Shown here: in pieces, positions 27,705-61,343 of the stretch
Numbering within the stretch: position 1 is the first letter of the stretch
How the letters are laid out: every line of letters begins with the position of its first letter
Virus record (IMG/VR): IMGVR_UViG_3300023301_000009
Location: 1-61,770 of that record
DNA: 61,770 bases
Direction: 5' to 3' (one strand)
Source of the DNA: a virus
Lineage: Duplodnaviria > Caudoviricetes
Position numbers and translations under genes: made by a program
The notes under the pieces: model-generated
What the model saw: only the letters and a program-made list of their open reading frames with translations
Databases searched by the model: none
What the model was told of the DNA's origin: nothing

Positions 27705-28097
27705 CTAGTTTTGCTTACGACTGTCGAGTGTGACCACCATGTCACCGTTGTTATATTTCATATCAGGAATCATGGCGTTGTCAATCGAAACTGTCCCGAT
27801 GGCCTCGCGTGTGTCCTCTAAATCTAGCCCTACGCGATGCAAGTCGTGGGCGGTGGCGAGGTACAAAATCATCTCGTTTTCTGTAGCTAGCTCCTCACGC
27901 ACAAGCACCTCAAGGCGCTTTTTCGTTTCGGTTAGACTTTGCTCCCTGCGTTGCAACGCCTCAAACCGTTGGAGCAACTGCGCTTTTAATCGGTTTGTCA
28001 ATAAGTCGAGATCGTCAGCAAGGTTCTTCAACGCAGGTCCAACGCCCGCAATGTTATTCTCTGTTGGTTCCAAACTTATTCTCCCTAGATTCTTCAC
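27705..28097 (-). CDS. hypothetical coiled-coil protein
   Basis: 130 aa in the head operon. Confidence 0.6.
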   Translation of the reverse strand: MKNLGRISLEPTENNIAGVGPALKNLADDLDLLTNRLKAQLLQRFEALQRREQSLTETKKRLEVLVREELATENEMILYLATAHDLHRVGLDLEDTREAIGTVSIDNAMIPDMKYNNGDMVVTLDSRKQN

Positions 28098-31000
28098 TCA
28101 TCAACGCGACCGCTGGTGCATGTGTGTTGACAGTAGCTGTAATTATTTCTTCATTCAAGGCTAACTCTTTGGTGATGGCCTTGAGTAGCGACTCGGCCTC
28201 CACCTTAGATCTCTTCGCTTTTATCTCGCTGTACGTTGTGAACTCCTTTCGCTTCTGTGTATCAAGCAGCGTAAGCGGTGACATGCGGTCTTCAACTTTT
28301 ACTACCTCGTCGAGCGCAGACAGTATCATACCTTTTTGTTGCATCAGCTCCAGACGCCGCCGGTCTGTGTTCGAGTCTACATTCGTTAGGACATACGAGT
28401 CCACATCCTTCTTCTGCTTCGTTCGCCAGTTGCGTGCTTCCCGCTGCGCGAATTCCGCAAAGGTCCACGGCGTGTCGAAGTGAATCGTGCCAGTAGATTT
28501 CTTTTGAAGGTTCACGCCCGTCGAACCCGCGCGAGTCACAAGTAGCGTGTCGTACTCTCCTGAGTTAAACTTTTGTTTGGCGGTCGACTTCTCCGCGTCG
28601 CTCATGCCACCATGGTATTCGCCTACAACCAAGCCCTTAGATTCTAAAGCGGCCCTAAGCATGTTCTTTGACCCTATTCGCTCAAGATGAATAATCGGCT
28701 TCTTGTCTTTAAGCTCGTTGTCTAGCAGGCGGACGACCTCCTGTGCTTTGGCATTCGTCTTCCAATCGCCTCCGTGAATATTTTTATGGTGCTGGTTGTT
28801 TCTCCATGATTCAGGGTTGAACGTATTCTTAACTCCTTCAATCCTATCCCGATATTTAATCGCACGCTTCATCTTGCGGGACCGCATCCCTGTCGGCCTA
28901 AACTTGTTCGGGTCTATGTCCGTGTCGTACAACACCTTTTCGAGTTCTGGGAACTCTTGAAAATACGCACGTAGACTCGCTTCATCATCTGTCCTTTGGC
29001 TGCGCAATTTCACCTTCGCCTCCGCGTCCATTTTCAACTGGCGCATCTTGAAGCCGGTAAACTCTCCTTCAATCTGTGCAGCACGCTCCTTCTGCTTAGG
29101 CGTCATGGTTAACTCTCTAAGATACTTCGCTTTCTCTGCATCTGAACGCTTCGTCCCATCGGGGTGATAATCTCTAAATGGGTTATTAAGTCTCTTATCC
29201 AGCGGTGACGCTCGCGTAAACGTGTAGGTATCCATCTCCCGTCGGAGCTGCGCCACCATCGACTCGCCAAACACGTTCGAGTTGAGCGTGATATTATCGT
29301 ACTGCTTCGTGAATTCATCTTTGGGCGGAAACTGGCCGGGGTTCAACCAGTTCGATATATCCCAAAACTCACCCATGTTGTTCTTAGCTGCCGTGCCTGT
29401 AAGGCCGACGCGGTACTTCAACCTTCCACCAACCAGCTTTTGTAAACCCTCCGCTTTAGCAGACCCTCCCGTCGGACTCGCAGACGTCATCTGGTGAATC
29501 TCATCAATAGCCATAAAGTCAAACGTGTCCTTAGCCTGTGCAGCGGACGCCGCCAAATCATCATGTGAGATGATCGTGAACAGCGCACCATCTCTTCTGT
29601 CCTCTGCATAGTTGCGCTCCATTGCCACCACATCGTCTTGGAATCCCTTGACCGTGACTCTCGTTAGGCGTGTCGCAATCTCAGCTTCGATTGTGTCGGC
29701 GTACGCTTCTGGTAATCTACTACGGTCTGGTAGTTTCTCACCATCCTCGCCACGGACAAATGGCACGTTCTCCATAACTACATCTCGCACCTTCTCCCTG
29801 ATATCACGCTCAACATCAACCCTGCTGCTGGCAGACGTATAGAGAACGATCTTACCCTTCTCGTTGAACTGCATGATCTCTTGTACCATTTGGTTCCTAA
29901 GTGCCGCAGGCGTTGATATACACCCCGCGTCAATTTCACCCTTAGCATGCAGGTCGGAGACCGCCCCAATGATAGTTGGGGTCTTACCTAGCCCAGCCCC
30001 AAAGTGGAGGAGCGACTGCTTGGCCTCCTCAATGAATTTGATGCCCGACTGCTGCTCGACGTGCATGGCAATTTTGAACCCACCCGTGGGGTCATCGGTC
30101 TCCGGTTGCCACGCCTCGATATGATCTTGCATCCCCAGCGGTGAGATCGCTATTTCATCTGCCTTGATGCGGCGCAGCAAGTCATTTCTTTTCGCATGCT
30201 TCTTTAGCGGCCAAGTGCTTGTTGCCTGCGGGTCCATCTCGACTATGTACTTACCCTTGTCCTTGAGTATCTTGTATGCGCCAGACTCAGGTGGGAATCC
30301 GTTGGCAAGCATAAACTGCCCTAACTCCTCTTTCGTGGTTGCAGAGTTTGAGTGCATTGGCTTACGCTCTCCACCTATATGATTCTCAAGCGACTGGAGA
30401 AGTGCGGCATTTGTTCCAGCCTGTTGCAACTCCCTCGCATACTCCATGCGAATGTTCGCTACCTCCGTAGCCTTAGTGATTGAGCTGAGTGCAGATTCGC
30501 CTAGTACCGCTGCCTCCAACTTATCCCTATGCTCTCCTGCTTTGTTAACACCCTCCATAATCTGCGGTAGCATCCGCTCTTTAATCTCTTGGAGCGTTCC
30601 GCGCATTCGCACACGGTCGAAACCCTCAACCTGCGCCATAAGCAGATTCGCCGCCCCGTCAATTCCCAGCATCGACGCCGCGTGTCTGTCAAATTGCGCG
30701 TTGATTCCCATCTCGCCTGCAACAGCATTAAGCGACGCAGCTACGTTATCTGGAACTTGGCTGGATGACATCGTGTCTTTAGGAAATGGCCTATTCTCAA
30801 CCAGTTGGTCGAGAATAAGCATGCTCAGCTCCTTTGGTGGATGCCACGGCTCTTGGTAGCACATGCAATGCGGGTGGGGCAGACTCGGATATTCCACAAC
30901 TAGGTACATACCCGATATGTCCACATCGCTTAGGTCTACGTCGAACTCCGCGAGCTTTGCTATAACGCCAGCTCCTGTGCCTGATGCCAGTATCTCACAT

Positions 31001-31821
31001 ACCTCATGTCCGCTGTGCCACGCGTGGCTACTGCTCAACCGCCAGTAGCTAAACGCCACCCCTAACTCTTTGTACAAAGCCAAGTTTGCTTCTCTCGCCG
31101 CGCGGGCCTGTTCAGTCCTGTTGATGCGTTGCAGCGACTTGCCCACGGAGCCGCCGTCAACTCTCGTATGCCCCGGCTTTGGGTCGTGTAACCCCCGGCG
31201 CATGTAGTCCATCGCCTTCGTGGAATCCTCGCCGAGCTTAGACTTGATAACACGGTCGTAGCGCAGCTTCGCCTTCCCCGCTTCTCTTGCTAGCCGATCC
31301 TTAGTTGTAGTCTGCGTTCCGGGGAACGGATTGTTCATCGCATTGTTCGTAGCAGTGGCCGAGAGCTGGGCGAGCTTCGCGTCTGTTTGCTTCGGGATGC
31401 CGAGCTTTGCAAGTACCTCAGACTGTGCCCGCAGGTCTCGTTGGACTGCGAGTGCAATGTTTGACTTCATGGACTCTTGAACCTTCCCCATTGCCCCACG
31501 AATCTGTGTGTTCGCTAGTTGGTCTAACTCTAAGCGTGCCTTGGTTGTAAATTCACCAGACTCGGTGCGCGAGCTTTTATTCTTCTCACGGACCTCTGCT
31601 GAGAACGCTACTGTCCCATCCCTGAAATGCTGTCGTAGTGTGCCCGCCTGTTTATGTGATTGGCGTAACGACGTACCCCTAGCACCACGCATTTCTTCTG
31701 GGCCACGCTGAATCAGCTCTTGGCCAATAGCCGCTTCGTCTACTGTCACTCCACCCACCTTGGCCGCATCAACGGGCGTGCTCGATTCGGGTCGCTCATT
31801 TTCTTCTGGTCTCTCAGCCAA
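28054..31821 (-). CDS. MuF/minor capsid (head morphogenesis) protein fused to SNF2-type SF2 helicase
   Basis: N-terminal RINRTEQARA..YWRLSSSH..C..PHPHCMC; C-terminal GAGLGKT, TPAAL, DEIH, LTGT, YHGG, TRAGSTGVNLQ, FDTPW, QREARNWR; directly after portal. Confidence 0.85.
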   Translation of the reverse strand: MAERPEENERPESSTPVDAAKVGGVTVDEAAIGQELIQRGPEEMRGARGTSLRQSHKQAGTLRQHFRDGTVAFSAEVREKNKSSRTESGEFTTKARLELDQLANTQIRGAMGKVQESMKSNIALAVQRDLRAQSEVLAKLGIPKQTDAKLAQLSATATNNAMNNPFPGTQTTTKDRLAREAGKAKLRYDRVIKSKLGEDSTKAMDYMRRGLHDPKPGHTRVDGGSVGKSLQRINRTEQARAAREANLALYKELGVAFSYWRLSSSHAWHSGHEVCEILASGTGAGVIAKLAEFDVDLSDVDISGMYLVVEYPSLPHPHCMCYQEPWHPPKELSMLILDQLVENRPFPKDTMSSSQVPDNVAASLNAVAGEMGINAQFDRHAASMLGIDGAANLLMAQVEGFDRVRMRGTLQEIKERMLPQIMEGVNKAGEHRDKLEAAVLGESALSSITKATEVANIRMEYARELQQAGTNAALLQSLENHIGGERKPMHSNSATTKEELGQFMLANGFPPESGAYKILKDKGKYIVEMDPQATSTWPLKKHAKRNDLLRRIKADEIAISPLGMQDHIEAWQPETDDPTGGFKIAMHVEQQSGIKFIEEAKQSLLHFGAGLGKTPTIIGAVSDLHAKGEIDAGCISTPAALRNQMVQEIMQFNEKGKIVLYTSASSRVDVERDIREKVRDVVMENVPFVRGEDGEKLPDRSRLPEAYADTIEAEIATRLTRVTVKGFQDDVVAMERNYAEDRRDGALFTIISHDDLAASAAQAKDTFDFMAIDEIHQMTSASPTGGSAKAEGLQKLVGGRLKYRVGLTGTAAKNNMGEFWDISNWLNPGQFPPKDEFTKQYDNITLNSNVFGESMVAQLRREMDTYTFTRASPLDKRLNNPFRDYHPDGTKRSDAEKAKYLRELTMTPKQKERAAQIEGEFTGFKMRQLKMDAEAKVKLRSQRTDDEASLRAYFQEFPELEKVLYDTDIDPNKFRPTGMRSRKMKRAIKYRDRIEGVKNTFNPESWRNNQHHKNIHGGDWKTNAKAQEVVRLLDNELKDKKPIIHLERIGSKNMLRAALESKGLVVGEYHGGMSDAEKSTAKQKFNSGEYDTLLVTRAGSTGVNLQKKSTGTIHFDTPWTFAEFAQREARNWRTKQKKDVDSYVLTNVDSNTDRRRLELMQQKGMILSALDEVVKVEDRMSPLTLLDTQKRKEFTTYSEIKAKRSKVEAESLLKAITKELALNEEIITATVNTHAPAVALMSEESRENKFGTNRE

Positions 31822-50522: not shown

Positions 50523-51014
50523 TTACTCCTCAATATTCATGTGAGTGAAACCTAAACTCTGAATCTCAAAAACCGGCAGCACTTCGCTGGGGGATATCCG
50601 AACCATGATTCTTGGTGGCTTGTCTATCTCCGCGTACGCCTTCGCAGTGGTGCCCATCACTATCTGCTTGTCGTCCTCGTAGAACCCCTCGTCTTCCATC
50701 ACGTCCTCAACCGGCTTACGCAGGTTTACGATATCCGGCCTGCTTGCAAACCAGATCATGCCTTTCGGATATTTGTATAGCCCTGTTTTCTTATACTTGA
50801 ACTGCATGTATTTCGGCCTTGGATATATCGCTACGATATCAACCCTAAGTGGTACACTCAATGGCTTCGGGGGCCGATGCGGTCGTATGAGCTTTGCAAA
50901 CTTCTTCTCCCAATCACGCATCACCTTTGGCTTGAATGCCCCACCTTTACCAAATCGTACAGATTGCTTTGCCTTTGGCTTAATCGGCCCAACTACGAAT
51001 TCAATGATATCCAT
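50523..51014 (-). CDS. rusA: RusA-like Holliday junction resolvase
   Basis: PKAKQSVR..PLRVDI..YPRPK..RPDIVNLRKPVEDVM..FYEDDKQIV. Confidence 0.8.
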   Translation of the reverse strand: MDIIEFVVGPIKPKAKQSVRFGKGGAFKPKVMRDWEKKFAKLIRPHRPPKPLSVPLRVDIVAIYPRPKYMQFKYKKTGLYKYPKGMIWFASRPDIVNLRKPVEDVMEDEGFYEDDKQIVMGTTAKAYAEIDKPPRIMVRISPSEVLPVFEIQSLGFTHMNIEE

Positions 51015-51015
51015 A

Positions 51016-52563
51016 TCAGTTACCTCGGTCGTACCACGGTCGCTCGGCTAACACTTTTTCTGGCTCATCATCCATTTCAATGACCCCATCTTCGACGTCG
51101 CTATCCTCTAGCGCCTCTCGTTTTTTCTGGTCATCAAAATTCTCATACTCATCTGCGTCATACCTATGGTCCTTACCTGTCTCCGATGGTTTCGTTCCCC
51201 CGCCTTTCCCGTAGCCACCAAATAGCTGGGAAATAATACCATTCCCTTTTGCTTTAATCTCAATCGAATCCTGCGGGTTCAGTATTTCCCGAACTTTTTG
51301 ACAAACATGCACAAACCGGTCTATCTCTTTTGATATATCTGGGTTGACCAGCCCACCCTTAGCCTTCTCCGCTACCAACGCAAACTGCAATCGCTCGTAC
51401 GTCTGCTCGACCACCGCGTTGAGCGCCTTCTCGATACTGAATTTCCCTGCGTGCTCACCCTGTGCCTTTAGCGCAGCTTTCTTAAATGGTATGGAACACG
51501 TCGAGTCCTTTTTGTAGAAGGGACATTTATCTGCGATGTAGCACGTATTGCAATGGTACCCGAACTCGGCCGTCTGGTCCTTCCCTCTTACCTCGGGCCT
51601 TTGGACGGCCTTAATTTCTTTGCGCTCCCCTGCTGCAATCACCGAAGCATCGTTTCGGTGCATCGGGGTTATGACTAGGTTCTGGTACTCAACCCACATT
51701 GACGCGTTGAACTGGTTCACTGCGCCGGAGCTGTCATCCATAAGTGCCGCGTAATCAATACTGTGTTTCTCACACCAGTCTTCATAGTTCGCGCGCACGC
51801 TCTTGTGATCGGGGTCTTTTGTCTTTAGCTCATCACCACTGAATACATACGTCACACCATATTGTGCCCCCATCATCCACGATGTCGAATCAACTGAGTA
51901 GAACGTAAGATTGCGGAACACGTCCTTGTTCGTCATCGCGAACCCGTGAACCTTCCTTCCCGCTTTGTCAGATATCTGTAACATCTCGATGTACTCCGAC
52001 TTCTCCATACCACCTTGTATGCCGATGTACTCATACTTCTCGACCAACTTCGTCCACTCCCTTTTGCGCGTGGTGAGCTGTTCCATTGGGCTGTCATATC
52101 CGTAGTACCCCTCGTAAGACGTGTGGTATACCGGCATGGGAGTTAGTCCCTCCTCCTCCATCAACGCCCGCCACTCCTCAATTTTTTCCACACCTACAAT
52201 GCTGTCAATATCCAGTTCGACGTACACGTCAAAGTAGTGCCCAAACTTTTTAAGCCATGAGATGTATTCTAAAATATACACTTCCGGCTCGACATAACCC
52301 TTTGGCTTCTCCTTCGCTACTGAACTGCCTGCTATATGCTTGCGGTGGAACAGCGACTTGCCGTGAAAACTGAAGTACGTGTGCGCACCAGAATCCAGCA
52401 TCACAAACGCGCCCGCCTCCTTAGCCTTCTCTAAAATCGTGGTCGCCTTCGAGTCGCTCATCTTGCGAAAGTAGAAGTACGAGCACAACAAATTTTCGGC
52501 ACCGACCGACAGTAGCTCGTCCATCGAGCGCTCTTTCTCAGCTCCGGCAAAACAAATTCTCAT
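51016..52563 (-). CDS. TGT/DpdA-like 7-deazaguanine transglycosylase with C-terminal Cys4 domain
   Basis: LLCSYFY, MLDSGAHT, ELDI, MPVYH, IGIQGG, VHGFAMT, YSVDSTSW..GAQYG; then CNTC..CP..C. Confidence 0.75.
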   Translation of the reverse strand: MRICFAGAEKERSMDELLSVGAENLLCSYFYFRKMSDSKATTILEKAKEAGAFVMLDSGAHTYFSFHGKSLFHRKHIAGSSVAKEKPKGYVEPEVYILEYISWLKKFGHYFDVYVELDIDSIVGVEKIEEWRALMEEEGLTPMPVYHTSYEGYYGYDSPMEQLTTRKREWTKLVEKYEYIGIQGGMEKSEYIEMLQISDKAGRKVHGFAMTNKDVFRNLTFYSVDSTSWMMGAQYGVTYVFSGDELKTKDPDHKSVRANYEDWCEKHSIDYAALMDDSSGAVNQFNASMWVEYQNLVITPMHRNDASVIAAGERKEIKAVQRPEVRGKDQTAEFGYHCNTCYIADKCPFYKKDSTCSIPFKKAALKAQGEHAGKFSIEKALNAVVEQTYERLQFALVAEKAKGGLVNPDISKEIDRFVHVCQKVREILNPQDSIEIKAKGNGIISQLFGGYGKGGGTKPSETGKDHRYDADEYENFDDQKKREALEDSDVEDGVIEMDDEPEKVLAERPWYDRGN

Positions 52564-52599
52564 TCCGTGAGTCCTCTTGTGCAGTGTGCGTTAACTTGC

Positions 52600-53598
52600 T
52601 CATTCTATTTCTTGCTTAACACCTTGGGCTTGGGTGTACTCGTGGAATACGCTAGCCATTCGCTGAGCCACCGCAGACTTCTCGTACTTCTCGACACGCT
52701 GTAGTGAATGCGGAGCAAACAGCGCATCCTGTACACATTGTTGAATCTCTTCAATAAGACTTGGGCGGTAGAAAAATTGATCAAGATACTCGTAGTACGG
52801 AGTGCACCCCGGTGCTACCGGATTCGCACCACAAATAACGCCCTCAATTAGCGACACATTTAGTGTGTCAGCCAACCCGCCGGTCACAACTACTTTTGCT
52901 TGGCACAGCAAGTCAGTGAACTCCTTAGCTTTGCAGTATGGCACAACAGCGTACCCGGTCCTGACCAAGTATTTATATACTTCTCCACCAGACGATCGTG
53001 TATCGAGGTCTTGTCCTGTTGAGAATACCACGCGATCCTTAAATGGCCGCAGTGCTTCAGACAAAATCATGGCCTGCTGCTTCTCTGGGGAAAACCTTCC
53101 CGGAACCACGATATACTTCTTCATATATCTAGTGTGATCGGGATAGTCATCCATATCAATGGGGAATCCAGTGACCTTAATAGGTGGCATGTTCTCATAC
53201 GCATCCTGTATCTGCGCTTTATGACTTTCCGTATTCACGGTCATGAAACTCAGCCGAGGCGTCCACTCCGAGAAGTCTATGATGCCACCCGTTGTTGGGG
53301 AATTCATCACCACGTCTATAAACTGTCTTGTTTCAATCCCACCATGGCAATGGGCCGCCGCCGGCTCGTCCCTGATATCCAAAACGTACGGCAGCGCCCA
53401 ATCGTGCTGCCGTTGAAAATACCAAAGGTCACACGGCGGAGCATCTATCACAGCTTGCTTAATCATATTGTATGGCAGTAGCGTAAGGTCGACCTCATGC
53501 ACCTCAATGTTGTTCTCCGCCATCCCCGCTAATACCGCCGCTGAAAACTGCGCAGACCAATCACCTGTACTTTTCTGGCAAACGTAATTCACTTTCAT
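52600..53598 (-). CDS. glycosyltransferase (GT-B, GT4-like)
   Basis: VPGRFSPEKQ..ADTLNVSLIEG..CGA.PVAP...Y.E. Confidence 0.75.
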   Translation of the reverse strand: MKVNYVCQKSTGDWSAQFSAAVLAGMAENNIEVHEVDLTLLPYNMIKQAVIDAPPCDLWYFQRQHDWALPYVLDIRDEPAAAHCHGGIETRQFIDVVMNSPTTGGIIDFSEWTPRLSFMTVNTESHKAQIQDAYENMPPIKVTGFPIDMDDYPDHTRYMKKYIVVPGRFSPEKQQAMILSEALRPFKDRVVFSTGQDLDTRSSGGEVYKYLVRTGYAVVPYCKAKEFTDLLCQAKVVVTGGLADTLNVSLIEGVICGANPVAPGCTPYYEYLDQFFYRPSLIEEIQQCVQDALFAPHSLQRVEKYEKSAVAQRMASVFHEYTQAQGVKQEIE

Positions 53599-54575
53599 AG
53601 TGTATCCTCAGTAATATAACTAGCAATCCTTTCGCACACCTTACCATCTAACATCGCACCAAATAGCATATCAACCCTTGCAGCTCTTTTCGTGGCGAGC
53701 AAGTCTTTGCCTCCCAGCACTCCGCCCATCATGACCTCCAGCTCATCCATGCTGCTGAACTGATAAAAGCAGTCCCTCCACCGGAATGACAAATCATCTG
53801 GGTCAAAGCTAGTGTCCACCGCAGGGTCACAAAGGTCTGTTCGCTTCCTGTCAAACCACCACCTGAACGAATTGTACGCGAACACAGGCTTTCCTGTCGG
53901 TAAGAACTCAAACAGTGCAGACCCCATATCCCCAATAAGTGCATTTGCTCCATCAAAACTTGCGACCAAGCCCCCCAAATTTTCTGCTGCCATTGTCACG
54001 CCGTGATGCCTAGCAGCTTCGCTGGCAATCTGCTGCTTGTACCCGGTGGCCGTCATCGGGTGAAGCTGGACTACTACCTCCTGTGGAATCATCGGGGCGA
54101 ATCGGCGGAGGAAATCTACAACCCAACCATCCCCTATCCCAAATTCGTGATTCCAAGTGGGAGCAACCACTATTTTTCCAGAACCTTCCACCGGTCCTCT
54201 TACCAGTTCGTCCATTTCCATGTAGCCGACGGGCACACACTTTGACACGTTCCTACCGCGCCTCTTCGCTTCTTCTATTGCAAAATTCGAGGCAACAAAT
54301 TCGGCCACCATTCTCTCATCCTTCTCCGCGTACGTCGTATTCTTGCTCGACCCTACCCCATGATGCACATGGTACCCGCGAATTTTAATGTCCGCAGCTA
54401 TCGTACGCAGGAACAAATGGTTTGCTACAACCACAATGTCTCCATCAGACGGCTCCCCTTGCCACTCTCCGAGCGCAACCATGTCAACGGCCACGCTATG
54501 CTTTGCAAGCTCGCCCTGTAGCCTCAGCAGCGTCCTGCGCTCCGCTTCTCCAGCGTACAACAACCAATAATTCAT
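53595..54575 (-). CDS. CDP-glycerol glycerophosphotransferase (TagF/TagB)-family protein
   Basis: HHGV..K, VGY..MD, VAPTWN, LHP, ALIGDMGSALFEFLPTGKPV. Confidence 0.75.
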   Translation of the reverse strand: MNYWLLYAGEAERRTLLRLQGELAKHSVAVDMVALGEWQGEPSDGDIVVVANHLFLRTIAADIKIRGYHVHHGVGSSKNTTYAEKDERMVAEFVASNFAIEEAKRRGRNVSKCVPVGYMEMDELVRGPVEGSGKIVVAPTWNHEFGIGDGWVVDFLRRFAPMIPQEVVVQLHPMTATGYKQQIASEAARHHGVTMAAENLGGLVASFDGANALIGDMGSALFEFLPTGKPVFAYNSFRWWFDRKRTDLCDPAVDTSFDPDDLSFRWRDCFYQFSSMDELEVMMGGVLGGKDLLATKRAARVDMLFGAMLDGKVCERIASYITEDTL

Positions 54576-55132
54576 GCGCCATCCGTAGGATCATTAGTGA
54601 CATGATCATACCGTTGCGCAGCCGAGTCTTGAACCCCACCTGCAATTCGGCTTGGCAACTTGTTTCGCAGACGCACTGCCAAATCCTCCGGCCCGACCTC
54701 AGTGTCATCTTCCCAAATTGGCTGCGACTGCAAAAATGCCAACCCGTTTCCTTTGCGCATCTTAACCGTCAGCGGCGCTTCAGTCCTAAATACAACATCA
54801 ACTCTGCGGTTACCCGCAAACACCAATGATGCGTCTCTTGCCGCAACATAGTCGTCCGTCTCGAATGTAATCTTTTGCTCACCCCATGACAGGCATTCAT
54901 GAATAAGTGCTGGGGGAAGACTCGTTTCTCTTGCTCCGATATAAATACGGTCGACTTCATACACGCTTGCAAGTGCACGCAGCTCATCTGGCAGGAACCG
55001 CTCACCGCCCGCATCTGAAACTCCAGACGCGACGTTGCCAATATTATCCTGCTCCACATCGAACACGAACAGCGTCAGGTCGCCACGCCCTACTGGCTCT
55101 TTCTCTTCGTCAACAAACGCGCTGTACTTCAT
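54572..55132 (-). CDS. hypothetical protein in modification cluster
   Basis: 186 aa, translationally coupled on both sides. Confidence 0.6.
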   Translation of the reverse strand: MKYSAFVDEEKEPVGRGDLTLFVFDVEQDNIGNVASGVSDAGGERFLPDELRALASVYEVDRIYIGARETSLPPALIHECLSWGEQKITFETDDYVAARDASLVFAGNRRVDVVFRTEAPLTVKMRKGNGLAFLQSQPIWEDDTEVGPEDLAVRLRNKLPSRIAGGVQDSAAQRYDHVTNDPTDGA

Positions 55133-56097
55133 CGTGCCTCCTTAATAACCATCCGTAGTTTCTTAAATGCTTGCGTGCCATGTCTCACTCTTAGCTCTTC
55201 CAACTCCTTACGCGAAAGTGGTACTGGCCTTGCCTCTACGCGCCAAACCATATCTTTAGTCGCGCGTACAATGAACCGCTTATCGTACAATTCTGGGTAG
55301 GACAACCTATTGGGCATCAAGCAGTGTGCCCCAAGGTACAAGGCTTCGAGCATAGCAATCCCGAAGGTTTCTTGGCGGTTCCACGATACTACAAACTTAG
55401 CGCTCCCGAGCACTTGGTAGTACCCTCCCTTTGAGCCAGCTTCTTCCTTCGTCACGACTACACTATGCCCACGCCTTCTAAGCTCCTCTATCAACCACGG
55501 GCTTTTCTCAGGGTCCAGCCTATGCGGAAATACTACATCGTGTACTTTGTGAGTGACACGGTACTGTTCAAGCTCTTCGAGTTTATACGGAAACGGGAGC
55601 ACGCGAACTTTACTCGCCAGCAGCTTGCGGTTCTGGAGGACGAGCTGCTTGTGGTATTCACTGAACACCACCACACGGTCGATGCGCTTGAACCAACCAT
55701 TTTCTACGTCTTGGCCCCAGACTGACATCCCGCTTCGGTGCAGAAAATCATTGGGGTCGTAAGAACCAGCGTGCAATATGCCAACCGTCTTCACGTCCAG
55801 TGCTGTTGCGTCGAGCATGTAAAAAATCTGCTCAAGTGGAAACCACATATCATGGAACACCAGCACGTCACCGTCTGCAATTGCGCCATCCCGCATCAGC
55901 TTCGCAATCTGTTGAACCTGTGTCGCCTTGTAGTGGTGCGTGGAATACACGTCTAAAAACGAACCTGTTTCTACCTCTTCGCTTAGGGGTGTCCCCCAGA
56001 TAAACTCGTCCTCCGAATACTCCTCCTTAAACCATCGCATCCACTGCGCGGAATACCTGTCCTCAATCGGCTCGATAGGTACATGCCAAATGCTCAT
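55129..56097 (-). CDS. glycosyltransferase (GT-B)
   Basis: EPIEDRYSAQW, HAGSYDPNDFL, VFPHRLDPEK, QETFGIAMLEA, PNRLSYPEL. Confidence 0.8.
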   Translation of the reverse strand: MSIWHVPIEPIEDRYSAQWMRWFKEEYSEDEFIWGTPLSEEVETGSFLDVYSTHHYKATQVQQIAKLMRDGAIADGDVLVFHDMWFPLEQIFYMLDATALDVKTVGILHAGSYDPNDFLHRSGMSVWGQDVENGWFKRIDRVVVFSEYHKQLVLQNRKLLASKVRVLPFPYKLEELEQYRVTHKVHDVVFPHRLDPEKSPWLIEELRRRGHSVVVTKEEAGSKGGYYQVLGSAKFVVSWNRQETFGIAMLEALYLGAHCLMPNRLSYPELYDKRFIVRATKDMVWRVEARPVPLSRKELEELRVRHGTQAFKKLRMVIKEAR

Positions 56098-56813
56098 GCC
56101 TCCTCCGATAATTTTAACTCAATAGCTTTAAGGTCGCTGGGGGAATCGAACTCTTTGACACACCAGCCGTCTGCTTGCGCCACCATCGTTTCCGTAGATA
56201 GCAGCTCGTTAATGACATCTTCATGATATGCCATCATGTGACTCGGCACGTTGAACTTAGCCTTATACTTGCTAGCCATGCTCTTGCTTAGGAAATACAC
56301 ACCAACCGCTTCTCCGAGTACCACCGCACCAAGGGGGAGCACTTTGCCAAGCTGCGTAATCCTACCACCGTCCTCCGCGCTAGATACCACGGCCTTTACG
56401 TCCTCATCGAGAACGTGTCGTGGGTGGACGAGCGCGGCAGAACCTCCAGCGACTAACTTCTCCAAATCGGGGCGTGCGTAGAACACAAGGTCGCCGTTCA
56501 CCACAATGGTTTCGTCGCTGTGCATTCCCGCAAGTGCAGCATCAAGTGAATACGCGGTGTTCGTAGTAGCATATTCCATATTGTAACAGATGGTCATGTG
56601 GTGGCGTCTGCTAAGCACTGCCTCATGTGCTGCCTTGATGACCTTCTCATGCTCGAACCCAACAACAACGATTATCTCGTCGACCAAGGGCGAAAACATT
56701 GCAACGGTTTTCTCCATGGGGATTCCATACCCTTTGACCGGGTGTATGACCTTCGCTGCCCCACCCAACCGCCGACCCATACCCGCCGCCAATATCACTA
56801 GTGCCCTGCTCAT
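56094..56813 (-). CDS. NTP transferase (LicC/phosphocholine cytidylyltransferase-like)
   Basis: ILAAGMGRRLG..K, YN.EYATTNTAYSL, NGDLVF, GEAVG, EFDSPSDL. Confidence 0.8.
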   Translation of the reverse strand: MSRALVILAAGMGRRLGGAAKVIHPVKGYGIPMEKTVAMFSPLVDEIIVVVGFEHEKVIKAAHEAVLSRRHHMTICYNMEYATTNTAYSLDAALAGMHSDETIVVNGDLVFYARPDLEKLVAGGSAALVHPRHVLDEDVKAVVSSAEDGGRITQLGKVLPLGAVVLGEAVGVYFLSKSMASKYKAKFNVPSHMMAYHEDVINELLSTETMVAQADGWCVKEFDSPSDLKAIELKLSEEA

Positions 56814-57406
56814 TACGTCTCCTTTGTTATTTCAAAATCAGGGTACTCACCTGAAATTTTCTTGTCTAATATTTGATCTCGAATCGACTCGATGATTCGT
56901 CTGGGAGAAGTATGTGCCCATAAATACGCTGACGTTCCAAGGTTATCGCAGATCCAGTTCACTGTAGCGTACTGCACAAACCCAGTCTCTTCCATTTCCA
57001 CAATCATGTTCTGTGCGTAACCACGTAGCTCCCACTTGAAACGCGTCGTCCAGACCGCAGGCAACACAAGCGTGTAGCTGAAGGGGAACCACACCGGGTT
57101 TGCGAACCAATCGCGTAGATGGACCGCTTCATGCCGAAGCAACCCATATCGCTGAAAGTTTTTACTGAAATACTTAACCCCATCGTCGTGCCCCAAAGGC
57201 AGGTAAATCGTATCACCCAGTGTGGTCACGGTGTTCTCGTAAAACCAGTCCTCGAACTTTGGTGCTACTAAGCCCACAAGGGTCATAAACACGGGTATGG
57301 CCTTATGCCACCACCTACGCCAGTTGCCTTTTTCTCGAATCTCCAGCGAGGGCACGTCGTAACGCATCCGTACTAGGTAATCTGTGACTGCACCTGTGTA
57401 GCCCAT
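56813..57406 (-). CDS. HExxH-containing membrane-associated protein
   Basis: TTLGDTIY, LRHEAVH, WELRGY; hydrophobic stretches. Confidence 0.55.
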   Translation of the reverse strand: MGYTGAVTDYLVRMRYDVPSLEIREKGNWRRWWHKAIPVFMTLVGLVAPKFEDWFYENTVTTLGDTIYLPLGHDDGVKYFSKNFQRYGLLRHEAVHLRDWFANPVWFPFSYTLVLPAVWTTRFKWELRGYAQNMIVEMEETGFVQYATVNWICDNLGTSAYLWAHTSPRRIIESIRDQILDKKISGEYPDFEITKET

Positions 57407-57439
57407 GATGTTTTCCAGGTGTTTGTAAAGAACTACTGC

Positions 57440-57802
57440 TTACGCTTGGAATATTAAAACGGCACCATTCTCACCATCCTCGTTTACCTCAACTGTCATG
57501 CTTCTCTCGCCGTACGTGACAGTCATCCATCTTGCTATTTCCACTGCCATCATCTCGCAGCTAAAGTATTCCTTGAACTCGCTTGTGACAAACTGTGCAA
57601 GCTGCTCGTCCAACGCATCCTTGAGTGCAAGGTACTCAAGATCCCTGTCATCATGGTGCTGCTCGACCAACAGCTCGACGTGGAACTCGTGGCGATGCCT
57701 ATTGCGTAAGTGCTCATGCTTGCCTGCGGGTGCGTTCGGCCAGTTGTGCATGAACTGAAACCGTGTACGAACCACTGCCATTAGCTTACTGTCCGTAGCC
57801 AT
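57440..57802 (-). CDS. QueD paralogue, DpdL-like T-fold protein
   Basis: HNWP.AP..LRNRHRHEF (LxxxHRHxF), DRDLEY, SCEMMA, VNEDGENGA. Confidence 0.7.
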   Translation of the reverse strand: MATDSKLMAVVRTRFQFMHNWPNAPAGKHEHLRNRHRHEFHVELLVEQHHDDRDLEYLALKDALDEQLAQFVTSEFKEYFSCEMMAVEIARWMTVTYGERSMTVEVNEDGENGAVLIFQA

Positions 57803-58328
57803 CTAAAACCTCCTTGTACTGTTTGCCCCTCACAGTGCGTAATACATCAAAAAATTCGCTACCCAATTCTTCTACAAGCTGGTCGAGTACATCATTGCCA
57901 TCTGCGTAATCAACCCACGCGAAGCGCATGTCAATCTCTTTATCAAGGATCATCCCTAATGACACACCCACCACGCGTATTGCAATAGCAAGCTCTTCAG
58001 AGTCTACATAGGGGAATACAAACTCGTAGTGCTTGGCCTGTGGCCACAGCGCAATGGCAGTAAGCGGGTATGTTACTAGCTCTACTCGCGTGACAATGTC
58101 CCCCATCAGTAAGGCGTCTGGATTGATCTTCAAAAGCAGGTCAGCCACCAAAGCTACATCAAGTTGCTGGGCGAAGATCGGTGCTACCTGCTCTTGTGCA
58201 GGTGTTAACTTAGTTGCTATCAGCTTGACCGTGCCCGGCGTCTTCAATTCCCTCATCACCGTACCCACTGCTATTGGCGATGCGTCGAATGCAACGAGTT
58301 TTAAGTGTCTTTCTGTTTCTGCAACCAT
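57786..58328 (-). CDS. hypothetical protein
   Basis: 180 aa, SD GGAGG. Confidence 0.6.
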   Translation of the reverse strand: MVAETERHLKLVAFDASPIAVGTVMRELKTPGTVKLIATKLTPAQEQVAPIFAQQLDVALVADLLLKINPDALLMGDIVTRVELVTYPLTAIALWPQAKHYEFVFPYVDSEELAIAIRVVGVSLGMILDKEIDMRFAWVDYADGNDVLDQLVEELGSEFFDVLRTVRGKQYKEVLDGYGQ

Positions 58329-58366
58329 TTGCTGCCTCCACGGTCTTGAGTCTAGGTCTGTTTCAC

Positions 58367-58612
58367 TTATTTGATAGCCAGCGAGTATATACGCGTAGCG
58401 CCATCGGCTGCTGCTTTTATTCTCGTTCTATACGCACCCAACTCGACGTGCGCGTGTACTTTTCTCGGCCCGCCTGTTGAACTAATCTTAATCCCGATAA
58501 TCAGCTCCTCCCACCCATGGTCCTTTGCCTTTTTCATGTAGGCTTCCAGCTCGGGCACCAGCTCCTCAGTAGTGCATGACACTACTACGTCAATTATCAT
58601 TTCAGGTTTCAT
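58367..58612 (-). CDS. hypothetical protein
   Basis: Coupled to the folE stop. Confidence 0.55.
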   Translation of the reverse strand: MKPEMIIDVVVSCTTEELVPELEAYMKKAKDHGWEELIIGIKISSTGGPRKVHAHVELGAYRTRIKAAADGATRIYSLAIK

Positions 58613-59154
58613 GTATGCTTCCTTTGCGCCATCTGCACAAGCTGGAGGAATTCATTTTTGTCTATGTTCCCTCGAATAGCATGAGTCGTTGTGTTTGAAT
58701 GCGGGTCTTCTACGCCTCGAATTGACATGCATAGGTGCTCGGCTGTCATCACCACGCAAACCCCCAGCGGCTCCAGCTCTTTGAACAGGTGGTCTACAAT
58801 TTGTACGGTCAACCTCTCCTGAATCTGTAAGCGATGTGCGAAGTGCCGAACAACCCTTGGTATCTTCGATAGGCCAATCACCTTCTTACCTGGGATATAC
58901 CCGACGTGTGCGGTCCCAATAAATGGCAAAAGGTGGTGCTCACATAAAGAGTTGAACTGAATGTCTGTCAGCAACACCATTTCATCACAGTGCACGCCAT
59001 CCCTATCAGCGGGAAATGTAGTTAACTCAGGTGGTTCGTCATGTCGGACTAGCTCCTTCCACATACGTGCAACCCTAGCTGGGGTCTCCTTCAACCCCTC
59101 CCGCTCAGGATCTTCGCCAAGCTGTTGGAGCAACGTGTAAATTGTGCTCTCCAT
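58609..59154 (-). CDS. folE: GTP cyclohydrolase I
   Basis: REGLKETPARVA, SLCEHHLLPF.G..H.GYIP, GLSKIPR, RLQIQERLT, EHLCM..RGV. Confidence 0.97.
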   Translation of the reverse strand: MESTIYTLLQQLGEDPEREGLKETPARVARMWKELVRHDEPPELTTFPADRDGVHCDEMVLLTDIQFNSLCEHHLLPFIGTAHVGYIPGKKVIGLSKIPRVVRHFAHRLQIQERLTVQIVDHLFKELEPLGVCVVMTAEHLCMSIRGVEDPHSNTTTHAIRGNIDKNEFLQLVQMAQRKHT

Positions 59155-59156
59155 AA

Positions 59157-59603
59157 TTATTCTCCCTTCGATTTTTGGATAATCTGGGCTGTCCCGCTGA
59201 GAATCCGTTGCTCAGCCCGTTGGAAGAACTGCTTCTGCAACTGCCCCAGCTCTCCAATTACGCGTAGCGTACTAATTTGGTCTTGCACGTCTGCGCACAT
59301 GCGGAACACTTCATGTGGTGTGGCCCTGTGGTGTACGTCGACGTCTTCCAAGTTCATGATTGGGAGCACCGCCCCATTCTTATAACGCACCAAAAGTACA
59401 GCAGTTACAATATCAGATGCCGTTGCTTTTTCGGGGTCGACCTCGCCGTGCGGCTCATCGGGCATATCCTCCTGCGTGAACCACTCTCCCGGCGTAGGCT
59501 CTCCCTTCGGCTTTGCTTTACCTTCCGGCTGCGGCTGTTCCTCTTGTGCTGCGTCCGGCTCGTTCGCTGCGTTCCCTTCCCTGTACGGCGTTTCTTCACT
59601 CAT
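59157..59603 (-). CDS. hypothetical protein with acidic N-terminus
   Basis: 148 aa, operon packing. Confidence 0.6.
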   Translation of the reverse strand: MSEETPYREGNAANEPDAAQEEQPQPEGKAKPKGEPTPGEWFTQEDMPDEPHGEVDPEKATASDIVTAVLLVRYKNGAVLPIMNLEDVDVHHRATPHEVFRMCADVQDQISTLRVIGELGQLQKQFFQRAEQRILSGTAQIIQKSKGE

Positions 59604-59606
59604 ATC

Positions 59607-59918
59607 TTATACCTCAAATTTATATTCAACTTCGGTTAATTGACGGCTTGTGACTTTGCTGATGCTAACTTCGGTGTACATGCGCTCGTGCTTCTCGCTG
59701 AGATAACAGGTCAATTCATGCCACACGGCAAACACAACCTCCGCGCCAAACACGCCTTCCCTGCTGAAATCGTCGGTCCACCACTTCTGCAAAACTTCCT
59801 TGGCTTCTGCTATCCCAAGGATCTCCCCATTCTCAGGAAGTTCTTGACAAACAGCTTCAACCTCAAACGTGGCTACCGGATTAGAAAGCTGAACTAGGAC
59901 AACGACGGAAAATCTCAT
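59607..59918 (-). CDS. hypothetical protein, possible degenerate QueD-like T-fold
   Basis: Residue pattern parallels QueD but lacks the His/Cys ligands. Confidence 0.45.
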   Translation of the reverse strand: MRFSVVVLVQLSNPVATFEVEAVCQELPENGEILGIAEAKEVLQKWWTDDFSREGVFGAEVVFAVWHELTCYLSEKHERMYTEVSISKVTSRQLTEVEYKFEV

Positions 59919-59919
59919 C

Positions 59920-60603
59920 TTAGTCTAGCCCCATCACTTTGTGCATCTGGACCGACACGCGCCATGCGGGATTTTTGCAGATGAATTCGTAACAGTCCGT
60001 ATAATGCTGTGCGAGATTTTCATCGTCAACCGGCTGGACGTACTTATGCTCAGCGAGATGTGCGAAATCTGTGGGGTTGAATAGGGGGAATAGCACCTTA
60101 ACCTCATCGTAGTGTTGGTACACCGGCTGGGAAGGAGGCTTGGGTGATACCGTTACCCAGTCAGGCCGACCCTCTTTCGGCATCTTGTTCGTGCCATTGG
60201 TTTCAATGGACGTGAAGAATCCTGCTGCCTTCAAAGCCTGTACCAATTCGGTATCAACTTGCAGCGTTGGCTCGCCCCCTGTCAGGACAATCATCATGCT
60301 TTCTTTGTTCTCCTCCCCAAAATGCGTATTCCATACCCGTGTTGCCTGCTCCGCGATCTCAGCAGAAGTTTTTTTGCCCCCCTGAGCCGTAATATCACGC
60401 ATGGTAAATTTCGTATCACATATAGCAGCGCAACCGCCTTTCTCTTTGGCGTTCATCCCGCGCGTGGCCTCGTAGCCAGACCATATATTACAGCCTGTGA
60501 ACCGGATAAACACCGCAGCTCTACCGGCGTGAACACCTTCGCCCTGAAGGGTTGCAAATAAATCTACGACTATATACCTCTTAGCTTTTTCTTTACTCAT
60601 CAT
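59920..60603 (-). CDS. queE: 7-carboxy-7-deazaguanine synthase (radical SAM)
   Basis: FATLQGEG.HAGR.AVFIRFTGCN..C...CDT; LTGGEP; IETNGT; WVTVSPK; WRVSVQMHK. Confidence 0.93.
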   Translation of the reverse strand: MMSKEKAKRYIVVDLFATLQGEGVHAGRAAVFIRFTGCNIWSGYEATRGMNAKEKGGCAAICDTKFTMRDITAQGGKKTSAEIAEQATRVWNTHFGEENKESMMIVLTGGEPTLQVDTELVQALKAAGFFTSIETNGTNKMPKEGRPDWVTVSPKPPSQPVYQHYDEVKVLFPLFNPTDFAHLAEHKYVQPVDDENLAQHYTDCYEFICKNPAWRVSVQMHKVMGLD

Positions 60604-61051
60604 CTGTCCTTGCCAGTTGTTCCGGCGTCCACTCAAAATAATCTGCGTAGCAATTCGGAGTTTCGTGAATCCTCACTCGCGTCACCAGCAGTTGCGTTTG
60701 CTCAAGCTGTAGCTTGGCTACTCCAAATAACTCCTTCGCGATATTCTCCGCAGTGGGGTTGCCACTCAGCATTCGGTAGTGCTTCCACTTGTTCCTCTTG
60801 CACAGCTCTATCAACTCTCGGTCTTCGGTGTTGAGTATCACGCCGTGGTCCCAGCACTCGTCAATCCAACCCCCGATCTTCTCCTTGAGAATACTGAAGT
60901 CTATGACACGCCCAAGGCTGTCCAGCCCACTCATGTCTTGTACAAAAATTTCCGCAGCATACCTGTGCCCGTGCAGATTTTTACACTTGCTCTCGTGGCG
61001 CATCACACGATGAGCAGCATCGAACTCGATTCTCCGCATGATCTCAAACAT
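60593..61051 (-). CDS. queD: 6-carboxy-5,6,7,8-tetrahydropterin synthase
   Basis: FDAAHRV..CKNLHGHRY..G.VIDF..WDH..NPTAENIA..ETPNC. Confidence 0.95.
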   Translation of the reverse strand: MFEIMRRIEFDAAHRVMRHESKCKNLHGHRYAAEIFVQDMSGLDSLGRVIDFSILKEKIGGWIDECWDHGVILNTEDRELIELCKRNKWKHYRMLSGNPTAENIAKELFGVAKLQLEQTQLLVTRVRIHETPNCYADYFEWTPEQLARTDDE

Positions 61052-61343
61052 GGATACGCTCCCAGATCTCCTGCTCACTCTCAACGCGAAAGCGGAGGCC
61101 CGTTGTTTCCATACCTTGCACTTGCTCTTGGGTAAACTCAGGAATAAATACTAACTTTATCCCATTGTCTTCTCCCATACGTCGGGCGATAGCACACGCT
61201 TTTGTCATCTGATTTACTGCGCCTGCCCCAATGGCAACAATGGTTACTGTCTTTCCCTCTTGGAAATTCATAACTAGCGCTCCCGCTGCTCCGGGTGCGT
61301 GTGTGTCGCCTGCGACTTTAAGTTCTATGCTTTGTTTTGCCAT
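61044..61343 (-). CDS. spoVS: stage V sporulation protein S homologue (Alba-like fold)
   Basis: LKVA....AAGAL..AIGAGAVNQMTKACAIAR..G..L..IP.F....G.E.T. Confidence 0.88.
   Translation of the reverse strand: MAKQSIELKVAGDTHAPGAAGALVMNFQEGKTVTIVAIGAGAVNQMTKACAIARRMGEDNGIKLVFIPEFTQEQVQGMETTGLRFRVESEQEIWERIHV

Follow-up and report, generated by a model that had tools for sequence, protein, structure and literature searches.

A phage gene cluster that may make a glycosylated 7-deazaguanine in DNA, and a glycosyltransferase family that accompanies DpdL and DpdA

Why should genes for the transfer of sugars lie among phage genes for a modified purine? The question is raised by the 61,770-base IMG/VR virus record IMGVR_UViG_3300023301_000009, estimated to be ~50% complete, the whole of which was analysed and is called the window below. 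On its minus strand, at 51016-61084, the genes for 7-deazaguanine synthesis and for a DpdA-family protein stand together with genes for two glycosyltransferases (GTs) of the GT-B type, a nucleotidyltransferase and a TagF-like phosphotransferase (Table 1). The original prediction had named nine genes in 51016-61051 and had proposed that a deazaguanine, or another base, is glycosylated and then capped with a phospho-alcohol. All nine genes are present there, on the minus strand, as judged by Pfam, NCBIfam and PHROG matches, motifs and folds. In our estimate the odds are even that 51016-61051 is one phage operon for a hypermodification that takes the place of guanine in DNA, the product being a glycosylated 7-deazaguanine to which this lineage adds a phospho-alcohol. 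All phage deazaguanine derivatives known, eight in number, have small 7-substituents, according to the abstract of Cui 2023 (PMC10516641). If true, a deazapurine carrying a sugar or sugar-phosphate would add a new chemistry to DNA, as the first purine with a sugar known from any genome; it would matter for how phages evade restriction, CRISPR and glycosylase defences, and its enzymes would be new tools for DNA labelling.

A glycosyltransferase family that accompanies DpdL and DpdA

The main result added here concerns a gene of the GT4 family, which in many phages is almost always partnered with DpdL and DpdA. In the window this is the first of the two GT-B genes. Its relatives are encoded in at least 582 IMG/VR stretches and in the cultured phages PA5oct, ACP17, BCSR5, BUDD/X1, Phosso and BUCT-ZZ01. 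The best 80 of the 582 stretches, each with 6 kb on either side of the GT, formed a GT-centred viral set, and the best 80 of 525 viral stretches encoding a DpdA relative formed a DpdA-centred set. Because selection went through the GT or DpdA, with no dereplication (L002/L093, L031/L113 and L091/L182 occur in two sets), the counts that follow overstate independence; the search profiles were also built from the same loci that were later searched.

By profile search, DpdL is present in 73 of the 80 GT-centred loci, FolE in 65, a QueE-like protein in 62 and QueD in 49. At least one deazaguanine gene occurs in 78/80, the two exceptions being a contig of 4 kb and a locus that has the GT at one edge. 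A DpdA-type gene was found in 74/80, of the window type in 46 loci and of the ACP17 gp123 type (421 aa) in 28. It lies within 200 nt of the GT in 32/80 loci, and DpdL is as close in 22/80. The GT is present in 19/80 DpdA-centred loci and DpdL in 13/80, and all 13 loci with DpdL also have the GT (profile search). Among cultured-phage records with a GT match (ACP17, eleven PA5oct-like, Phosso, BCSR5, Xanthomonas BUDD and X1, Synechococcus BUCT-ZZ01), DpdL lies within ~4 kb in 18/18. Contigs from bacterial and archaeal genomes gave DpdL in 26 and a deazaguanine gene in 31 of 41 GT loci. Independent assortment of the sugar genes in relatives had been set in advance as the outcome that would count against the original prediction; linkage is favoured, both in the viral loci and in the cultured records.

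An AlphaFold2 model of the first GT made with 35 homologs (pLDDT 92.8, pTM 0.90) is a complete GT-B, for which Foldseek returned 389 matches at E<=0.001, including BshA (6d9t, 8.1e-12) and MshA (3c4q). Those ranked highest are GT4 enzymes whose acceptors are small molecules (BshA, MshA, LmbT), and a tetrahydrobiopterin glucosyltransferase (9v0l) stands at rank 44. The best viral structural match is ACP17 gp124 (TM 0.83). Many relatives carry PF00534. Residues E243 and E251 (EX7E), K198 and an H109-A-G motif are invariant in 35 family sequences. E243, E251 and K198 are presumably the GT4 donor-site motif positions, and their invariance weighs against a purely structural role. Single-sequence searches of the PDB with this GT, the TagF-like protein and p332 gave nothing significant. 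The second GT-B, a distant paralog, had no Pfam match of its own; its ortholog in the related locus L002 matches Glycos_transf_1 at 2.3e-4, under the cut-off.

No paper linking deazaguanine, DpdL or DpdA with a glycosyltransferase was found in literature searches that left subscription journals uncovered. The string 'glycosyl' is absent from the main text of Cui 2023 (PMC10516641), and Supplementary Data S1 of that paper has no GT column or entry.

The GT and DpdL also occur as overlapping genes on chromosomal contigs of Magnetospirillum (L206:4324-7481; L203-L210), with a QueD-like gene 2 kb away. The neighbours of the pair there are a CoiA-like nuclease-domain protein, a HEPN protein and two-component regulators. 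This locus could be a cellular counterpart, perhaps related to defence.

A proposed route to a decorated base

FolE, QueD and QueE would convert GTP to 7-carboxy-7-deazaguanine (CDG) by the established pathway. The likely start of QueD is the ATG at 61051, and the match of QueE to TIGR04508 falls under the equivalog cut-off. QueC was not found in the window or in the relative G001, records that are 50% and 78% complete, so that FolE, QueD, QueE, DpdL and a DpdA-family gene are present without a detected QueC. DpdL would then convert CDG to the 7-deazaguanine core; that it is a CDG decarboxylase is a published, unproven proposal, as set out in the available text of Cui 2023 (PMC10516641). There too, the DpdL signature LxxxHRHxF is described as standing in for CxxxHGH of QueD. 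The window protein, which has no Pfam match, reads L-RNR-HRHEF, an exact fit, and among DpdL-type open reading frames (ORFs) in the fetched loci HRHxF is found in 83/86 and CxxxHGH in 0/86. With tblastn it reaches phiST CGPG_00067 (6e-6) and ACP17 gp125 (3e-7), both listed as DpdL in Supplementary Data S1 (Cui 2023, PMC10516641). In Vibrio phage Bakedbeans (L167:5206-6357) and Chryseobacterium phage MA9V-3 (L170:5449-6330) the DpdL domain is the C-terminal part of 383- and 293-aa proteins, respectively, and the N-terminal part of the Bakedbeans protein has a weak match to the QueD profile (2.3e-4).

The DpdL and DpdA of phiST and ACP17 gave no 2′-deoxy-7-deazaguanine (dDG) in E. coli, and the authors suggest in the available text that further enzymes are needed (Cui 2023, PMC10516641). 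In ACP17 the GT gene lies between this very pair. The GT is thereby a concrete candidate for the component missing from the published reconstitution, and a glycosylated product, if true, would explain both that failure and the modified G of PA5oct. The finding is directly testable, since two phages in culture, PA5oct and ACP17, have this GT between their DpdA and DpdL genes.

The window transglycosylase is assigned to DpdA by homology. Its family has the invariant motifs LDSGA and SVDSTSW and four invariant Cys residues; we take LDSGA and SVDSTSW to resemble TGT motifs. By tblastn the protein reaches BCD7 YP_007005872 (1e-17) and VpKK5 YP_009126591 (4e-7), both in the DpdA column of Supplementary Data 1 (Hutinet 2019). 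It is predicted to exchange the base into phage DNA, and would do so before or after decoration. Neither the sequence nor the family profile had a match in the PDB, and hhalign of the family against phiST DpdA3, ACP17 gp123 and PA5oct gp168 gave uninformative alignments. A locus search with the single protein found no relatives, which surfaced only with an alignment as the query. Elsewhere DpdA is split into two adjacent ORFs (L014:2551-4165, L016:9950-11640, L017:9956-11612, L029:9959-11747) of ~310 aa (N-terminal) and ~230-285 aa (C-terminal), and the C-terminal domain, with C338, C341, C347 and C356 in the window, is therefore a separable unit.

Between DpdL and DpdA lie six genes, the sugar genes among them, and these would decorate the base. 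From p197 through the second GT-B, consecutive genes share 1 or 4 nt by their ORF coordinates, which bears out the tightly packed run that had been described. The GT4 enzyme would add the first sugar from a UDP-sugar, either an N-acetylhexosamine (HexNAc) or a hexose, to the free base or on DNA, a step suggested by linkage, and the second GT-B might extend it. From the chemistry of its family, the nucleotidyltransferase would make an NDP- or CDP-activated alcohol or sugar phosphate. It had been called LicC-like, a label only roughly right because the closest solved relative is a CTP:inositol-1-phosphate cytidylyltransferase. The TagF-type enzyme, again from family chemistry, would transfer the activated group as a phosphodiester cap. 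On its own this protein scores 17.5 bits with Pfam Glyphos_transf, under the cut-off of 22.1. Among its relatives, of which a word-based search found 2 and an exhaustive search 99, 27/30 match, and the cut-off is passed by the L002 ortholog with 31.4 bits and by that of L018 with 40.9 bits. The family profile finds TagF (3l7i, 2.5e-12), Cps3D (1.8e-10), TarL (3.4e-10) and Bcs3 (1.5e-7) in the PDB. H72 and H172 are invariant in 30 sequences; H172 aligns with the histidine of the TagF MHYL motif, and H72 is outside the aligned part.

In the closest relatives the GT, TagF-like and nucleotidyltransferase genes are kept within the deazaguanine cluster despite rearranged gene order. The DpdA of L002 (contig G001) is 43% identical to that of the window, and the locus has the whole sugar set in a different order. 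Three further enzymes are encoded there: a NAD-dependent epimerase (1.5e-12) in the interval from FolE to DpdL, a Methyltransf_24 protein (3e-14) in that from DpdL to the GT and, two genes downstream of the GT ortholog, a PIG-L N-acetylglucosamine (GlcNAc) deacetylase (5.5e-14). The pairing of a GT4 enzyme with PIG-L mirrors MshA/MshB and BshA/BshB and hints at a HexNAc donor. L018, with a DpdA 26% identical, has no DpdL; two GT-B genes, a TagF ortholog (1.6e-10) and a GT2 with a weak match to TET-associated GTs (2.4e-4) lie between FolE and QueC-DpdA. In L003, QueC, a GT-B and a GT2 precede DpdA, and a sugar-nucleotide epimerase/dehydratase (4.5e-47) and an RGP-type mutase (1.5e-15; UDP-arabinose mutase family) follow it (L003:10825-12794). 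The last two recall the UDP-arabinose genes of phages with arabinosylated cytosine.

Other genes occur near the GT or DpdA in particular loci. A 450-aa radical S-adenosylmethionine (SAM) protein is encoded near the GT in 18/80 GT-centred loci, between DpdL and the GT in L096 (3380-4729), and a SPASM-domain radical SAM protein of ~290 aa lies directly beside the GT in some loci (L094:6996-7856). These may contribute further chemistry on deazaguanine, and lineages may therefore differ in what they make. At L160:8032-8496 and in nine other GT-centred loci, a 154-aa phosphoribosyltransferase (Pfam 3.1e-12) is encoded close to the GT and DpdL; two of its loci are without either DpdA type, a hint that some large phages use a pre-replicative route at the level of nucleotides. 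Genes for 2-oxoglutarate-Fe(II) oxygenases between QueC and DpdA (L023:8577-9209, L029:9384-9959) may represent another undescribed deazaguanine tailoring step.

Known systems and competing readings

One of the closest described systems is the dDG pathway of Cellulophaga phage phiST (Cui 2023, PMC10516641). Like the window it has FolE, QueD, QueE, a DpdL with LxxxHRHxF and a DpdA-type gene downstream, and no QueC. It differs in that an unrelated protein of 159 aa is encoded between DpdL and DpdA3, the GT, TagF and nucleotidyltransferase are lacking, and the DNA holds plain dDG. CGPG_00066 of phiST was considered as a counterpart of the GT and was rejected, being unrelated to it. The window DpdA groups with the BCD7/VpKK5 family, and a relation to phiST DpdA3 was not detectable by hhalign. 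Acidovorax phage ACP17 and Pseudomonas phage PA5oct have the same GT family directly between DpdA and DpdL, in the orders gp123 (DpdA2)-gp124 (GT)-gp125 (DpdL) and gp168-gp167 (GT)-gp166 (DpdL); their DpdA proteins are of the DpdA2 and DpdA3 subfamilies (Supplementary Data S1, Cui 2023, PMC10516641). Unlike the window, both have a single GT and lack TagF, the nucleotidyltransferase and the second GT. The cluster of Bacillus phage BCD7 (SpoVS-like, QueD, QueE, QueC, FolE, long DpdA) shares a homologous architecture, the DpdA family and the upstream SpoVS-like gene, but has QueC, for the preQ0 route, and neither DpdL nor sugar genes.

Sugars on bases are known from pyrimidine systems. The clusters for T4 alpha/beta-GT, metavirome 5-hydroxymethylcytosine (5hmC) and the arabinosyl-5-hydroxycytosine of RB69/DLP3 resemble the window in having GT-B or GT-A enzymes, second GTs, cytidylyltransferases and epimerases, and as far as the available texts go they build mono- to trisaccharides on the DNA base (PMC13326640; bioRxiv 2023.12.21.572611). 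They differ in their acceptor, a pyrimidine hydroxyl from ThyA-like or TET-like enzymes, none of which was found in the window, and the available portions of these texts do not mention deazaguanine or a TagF-type step. The bacterial secondary metabolites huimycin and dapiramicin offer a glycosylated 7-deazapurine. FolE-QueD-QueE adjoin a Glyco_transf_4-type GT in their clusters, and HuiG, a PF13439 GT, attaches GlcNAc to the 2-amino group, according to the accessible parts of the sources (PMC7439116; bioRxiv 2026.04.15.718813). The likeness to the window consists of the shared PF13439 and the gene context; their clusters have QueC and an O-methyltransferase and no DpdA. MshA/MshB and BshA/BshB, in which a GT4 GlcNAc transferase is paired with a PIG-L/LmbE deacetylase, resemble L002, and MshA and BshA are the best fold matches of the window GT; their acceptors are inositol phosphate or malate, and the window has no PIG-L gene. 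TagF, TarL, Cps3D and Bcs3 have a catalytic domain homologous to that of the window protein (2.5e-12 to 1.5e-7) and, likewise, a nucleotidyltransferase nearby (TagD/TarI/LicC-type). The window protein differs in being a single domain of 326 aa without membrane-targeting regions, encoded in a phage DNA-modification operon.

Several observations weigh against a glycosylated deazaguanine, besides the overstated independence of the counts. QueC is present and the GT absent in seven other long-DpdA loci that were scanned (L014, L016, L021, L023, L029, L038, L075). Only one relative contig (L002/L093) yielded the nucleotidyltransferase, and TagF was found there and in L018. Pfam TGT at E<=0.1 is matched by 0/18 members of the DpdA family. 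Among the GT relatives in bacterial and archaeal genomes, 10/41 have no deazaguanine neighbour, and 10/28 cultured-phage records with DpdL have no GT match. No GT was detected by profile within 6 kb on either side of six DpdL loci (phiST, Bakedbeans, D479, RHph_I1_18, MA9V-3, Ahp1), and phiST DNA contains plain dDG, as reported in the available text (Cui 2023, PMC10516641). For PA5oct, the available text of the END-nuclease preprint (PMC12191111) reports only restriction resistance pointing to modified G, and describes mass spectrometry on phages F8 and 14-1. The window is only ~50% of a genome. Finally, 7-deazaguanine has no hydroxyl to accept a sugar; the linkage would therefore be on N2, as in huimycin, or on the C7 or C8 pyrrole carbon. 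Alternatively, the product of DpdL might be something other than plain 7-deazaguanine in GT-carrying phages. On these counts the GT depends on DpdL and DpdL does not depend on the GT, which fits a GT acting downstream of DpdL.

The GT could instead act with DpdL on a free small molecule whose sugar is not retained in DNA, so that DpdA inserts an unglycosylated base. The sugar might, for example, serve as a transient handle on the base or a pterin precursor, or the product might be a pterin glycoside of the type made with FolE, a PTPS-like protein and a glucosyltransferase. BshA, MshA, LmbT and 9v0l all take small-molecule acceptors, the GT tracks DpdL and not one insertion enzyme, there being two DpdA types, and 2/80 loci have the phosphoribosyltransferase and no DpdA-type enzyme; moreover, the DpdL pocket fits only a base (supplementary text, Cui 2023, PMC10516641). 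We nevertheless consider this reading unlikely, since the GT is within 200 nt of DpdA in 32/80 loci, QueE and DpdA belong to the same cassettes, and the tailoring set of the window and L002 (second GT, TagF, deacetylase, methyltransferase) is more in keeping with a final decoration than with a transient handle. Still lower is the probability we give to a sugar block (nucleotidyltransferase, two GTs and TagF) that alters a host envelope polymer or a virion protein, for instance teichoic acid or capsule for superinfection exclusion, and is placed with the deazaguanine genes by chance. TagF-type enzymes and their closest solved relatives do build teichoic acids and capsules, phage GTs for teichoic acid such as TarP are known from the available text of bioRxiv 2023.12.21.572611, and some GT relatives on bacterial chromosomes have no deazaguanine neighbours. 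Yet the block stands between DpdL and DpdA and its own gene ends overlap by 1-4 nt, the sugar genes stay inside the deazaguanine cluster in L002, L018 and L003 despite their differing order, and deazaguanine genes accompany the GT in 78/80 loci. No membrane-helix-like stretch was found in any cluster protein, and no polyprenyl-phosphate transferase or flippase among the Pfam results for the window, which weighs against an envelope-glycan pathway.

It is very unlikely, in our view, that the sugars go on another base, a hydroxymethyl- or hydroxy-pyrimidine as in T4, RB69 and metavirome 5hmC, while the deazaguanine is separate and plain. All known DNA glycosylations are on pyrimidines, to the extent of the available texts (PMC13326640; bioRxiv 2023.12.21.572611), the GT2 of L018 has its weak TET-associated match, and half of the genome may lie outside the window; the GT family, however, tracks DpdL and not pyrimidine-modifying genes. 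A thymidylate synthase homolog (PF00303) was found in neither the window nor G001, both incomplete, in a search whose positive controls matched in 10/14 genomes, and a hydroxymethyl-pyrimidine acceptor is therefore unsupported in these incomplete records. Tet_JBP (PF12851) had no match in the same two records, in a search without a positive control. We give least credence to a GT-like protein that transfers no sugar and serves as a non-catalytic partner of DpdA or DpdL. The conserved adjacency to DpdA, with overlapping stop and start codons in many loci, would suit such a partner, but the model is a complete GT-B and L002 pairs the GT with a GlcNAc deacetylase.

With these alternatives weighed, the glycosylated and capped deazaguanine of the original prediction gains from the linkage and from the lack of detected ThyA homologs and membrane helices; the attachment of sugar to the base, the acceptor atom, the identity of the sugar, the order of the steps and the phospho-alcohol cap are inferred only. 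More broadly, and with somewhat more doubt than confidence, we suggest that the DpdL-associated GT4 family performs a core step, so far unrecognised, in the 7-deazaguanine pathways of many phages, the product being a glycosylated 7-deazaguanine, an N- or C-glycoside, which in the lineage of the window would bear a teichoic-acid-like sugar-phosphate-alcohol chain.

Layout of the cluster and other features of the window

The coordinates of the cluster genes and their immediate neighbours are collected in Table 1.

Table 1. Genes of the deazaguanine and sugar cluster and its neighbours in the window, with the evidence for each assignment.
Feature	Position	Strand	Evidence and remarks
RusA-like resolvase	50523..51014	-	Pfam RusA 3.7e-20; downstream neighbour, context only; same position in L002
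DpdA-family DNA guanine transglycosylase (predicted), 515 aa, C-terminal Cys4 domain	51016..52563	-	phrog_887 9.3e-57
Second GT-B, distant paralog of the first	52600..53598	-	hhalign to the first GT family 97.4% probability, C-terminal domain
TagF-type CDP-alcohol phosphotransferase-like protein, 326 aa, single domain	53595..54575	-	Family profile vs PDB; APTW motif
p186	54572..55132	-	4-nt overlap with both neighbours; no family match; low-confidence Atlas model
First GT-B, GT4-type retaining, DpdL-associated GT family	55129..56097	-	Glyco_transf_4 (PF13439) 30.0 bits, cut-off 28.5
Sugar-/alcohol-phosphate nucleotidyltransferase	56094..56813	-	Pfam NTP_transf_3 2e-12; PDB 2xme 4.5e-6; L002 ortholog
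p197, HExxH motif	56813..57406	-	1-nt overlap with next gene; unnamed Atlas clusters; no Pfam match
DpdL, 120 aa, QueD-like T-fold, proposed CDG decarboxylase	57440..57802	-	LxxxHRHxF; phrog_17812 4.5e-16; tblastn
p180	57786..58328	-	ORF only; no family match
p81	58367..58612	-	ORF only; no family match
FolE (GTP cyclohydrolase I)	58609..59154	-	Pfam 5.8e-65; TIGR00063 197.9 bits, over cut-off
p148, acidic	59157..59603	-	Same place in L002, tblastn 1e-20
p103	59607..59918	-	Same place in L002, tblastn 1e-5; no family match
QueE (7-carboxy-7-deazaguanine synthase, radical SAM)	59920..60636	-	TIGR04508 3e-57; phrog_2076 1.4e-32
QueD (6-carboxytetrahydropterin synthase)	60593..61084	-	Pfam PTPS 1.2e-29; phrog_2389 1.2e-35; NLHGHRY
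SpoVS-like protein	61044..61343	-	Pfam SpoVS 1.7e-20; conserved neighbour upstream of the cluster, context only

Nearly all long ORFs of the window are on the minus strand, and a myovirus structural module was recognised by PHROG matches at ~5.8-35.4 kb (baseplate, tape measure, sheath, tube, major head, portal and large terminase). A scan for promoters and terminators found no intergenic sites. Promoter-like sites numbered 8, under the shuffle mean of 11.2, and terminator-like sites 18 vs 9.6 in shuffles, all of them within genes. Most proteins encoded at 51016-61343 are strongly acidic, with net charges of -7 to -18. Megablast of the 51016-61051 region against phages gave zero matches. A metagenome scan found three loci only, of which L164 is 100% identical over the TagF-like gene. 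L164:1-3233 reaches ~2.8 kb past the high end of the window, and its additional ORFs, of 162, 364, 314 and 169 aa, have no Pfam match.

The SpoVS-like gene just upstream of QueD has the same upstream position in L002 (8-217), L018 (2291-2590), L075 and other DpdA loci, and is found at the start of L214. In BCD7 this position is occupied by a 'sporulation protein'. The gene was detected in 8/80 DpdA loci by tblastn and in 24 of ~160 loci by profile, and its product may be part of the deazaguanine module. Within the structural module, a 1255-aa protein encoded on the minus strand at 28054-31821 has a head-morphogenesis domain (phrog_1657) fused to helicase-like (phrog_62) and methyltransferase-like (phrog_11801) parts, and may be an anti-restriction protein packaged in the capsid.

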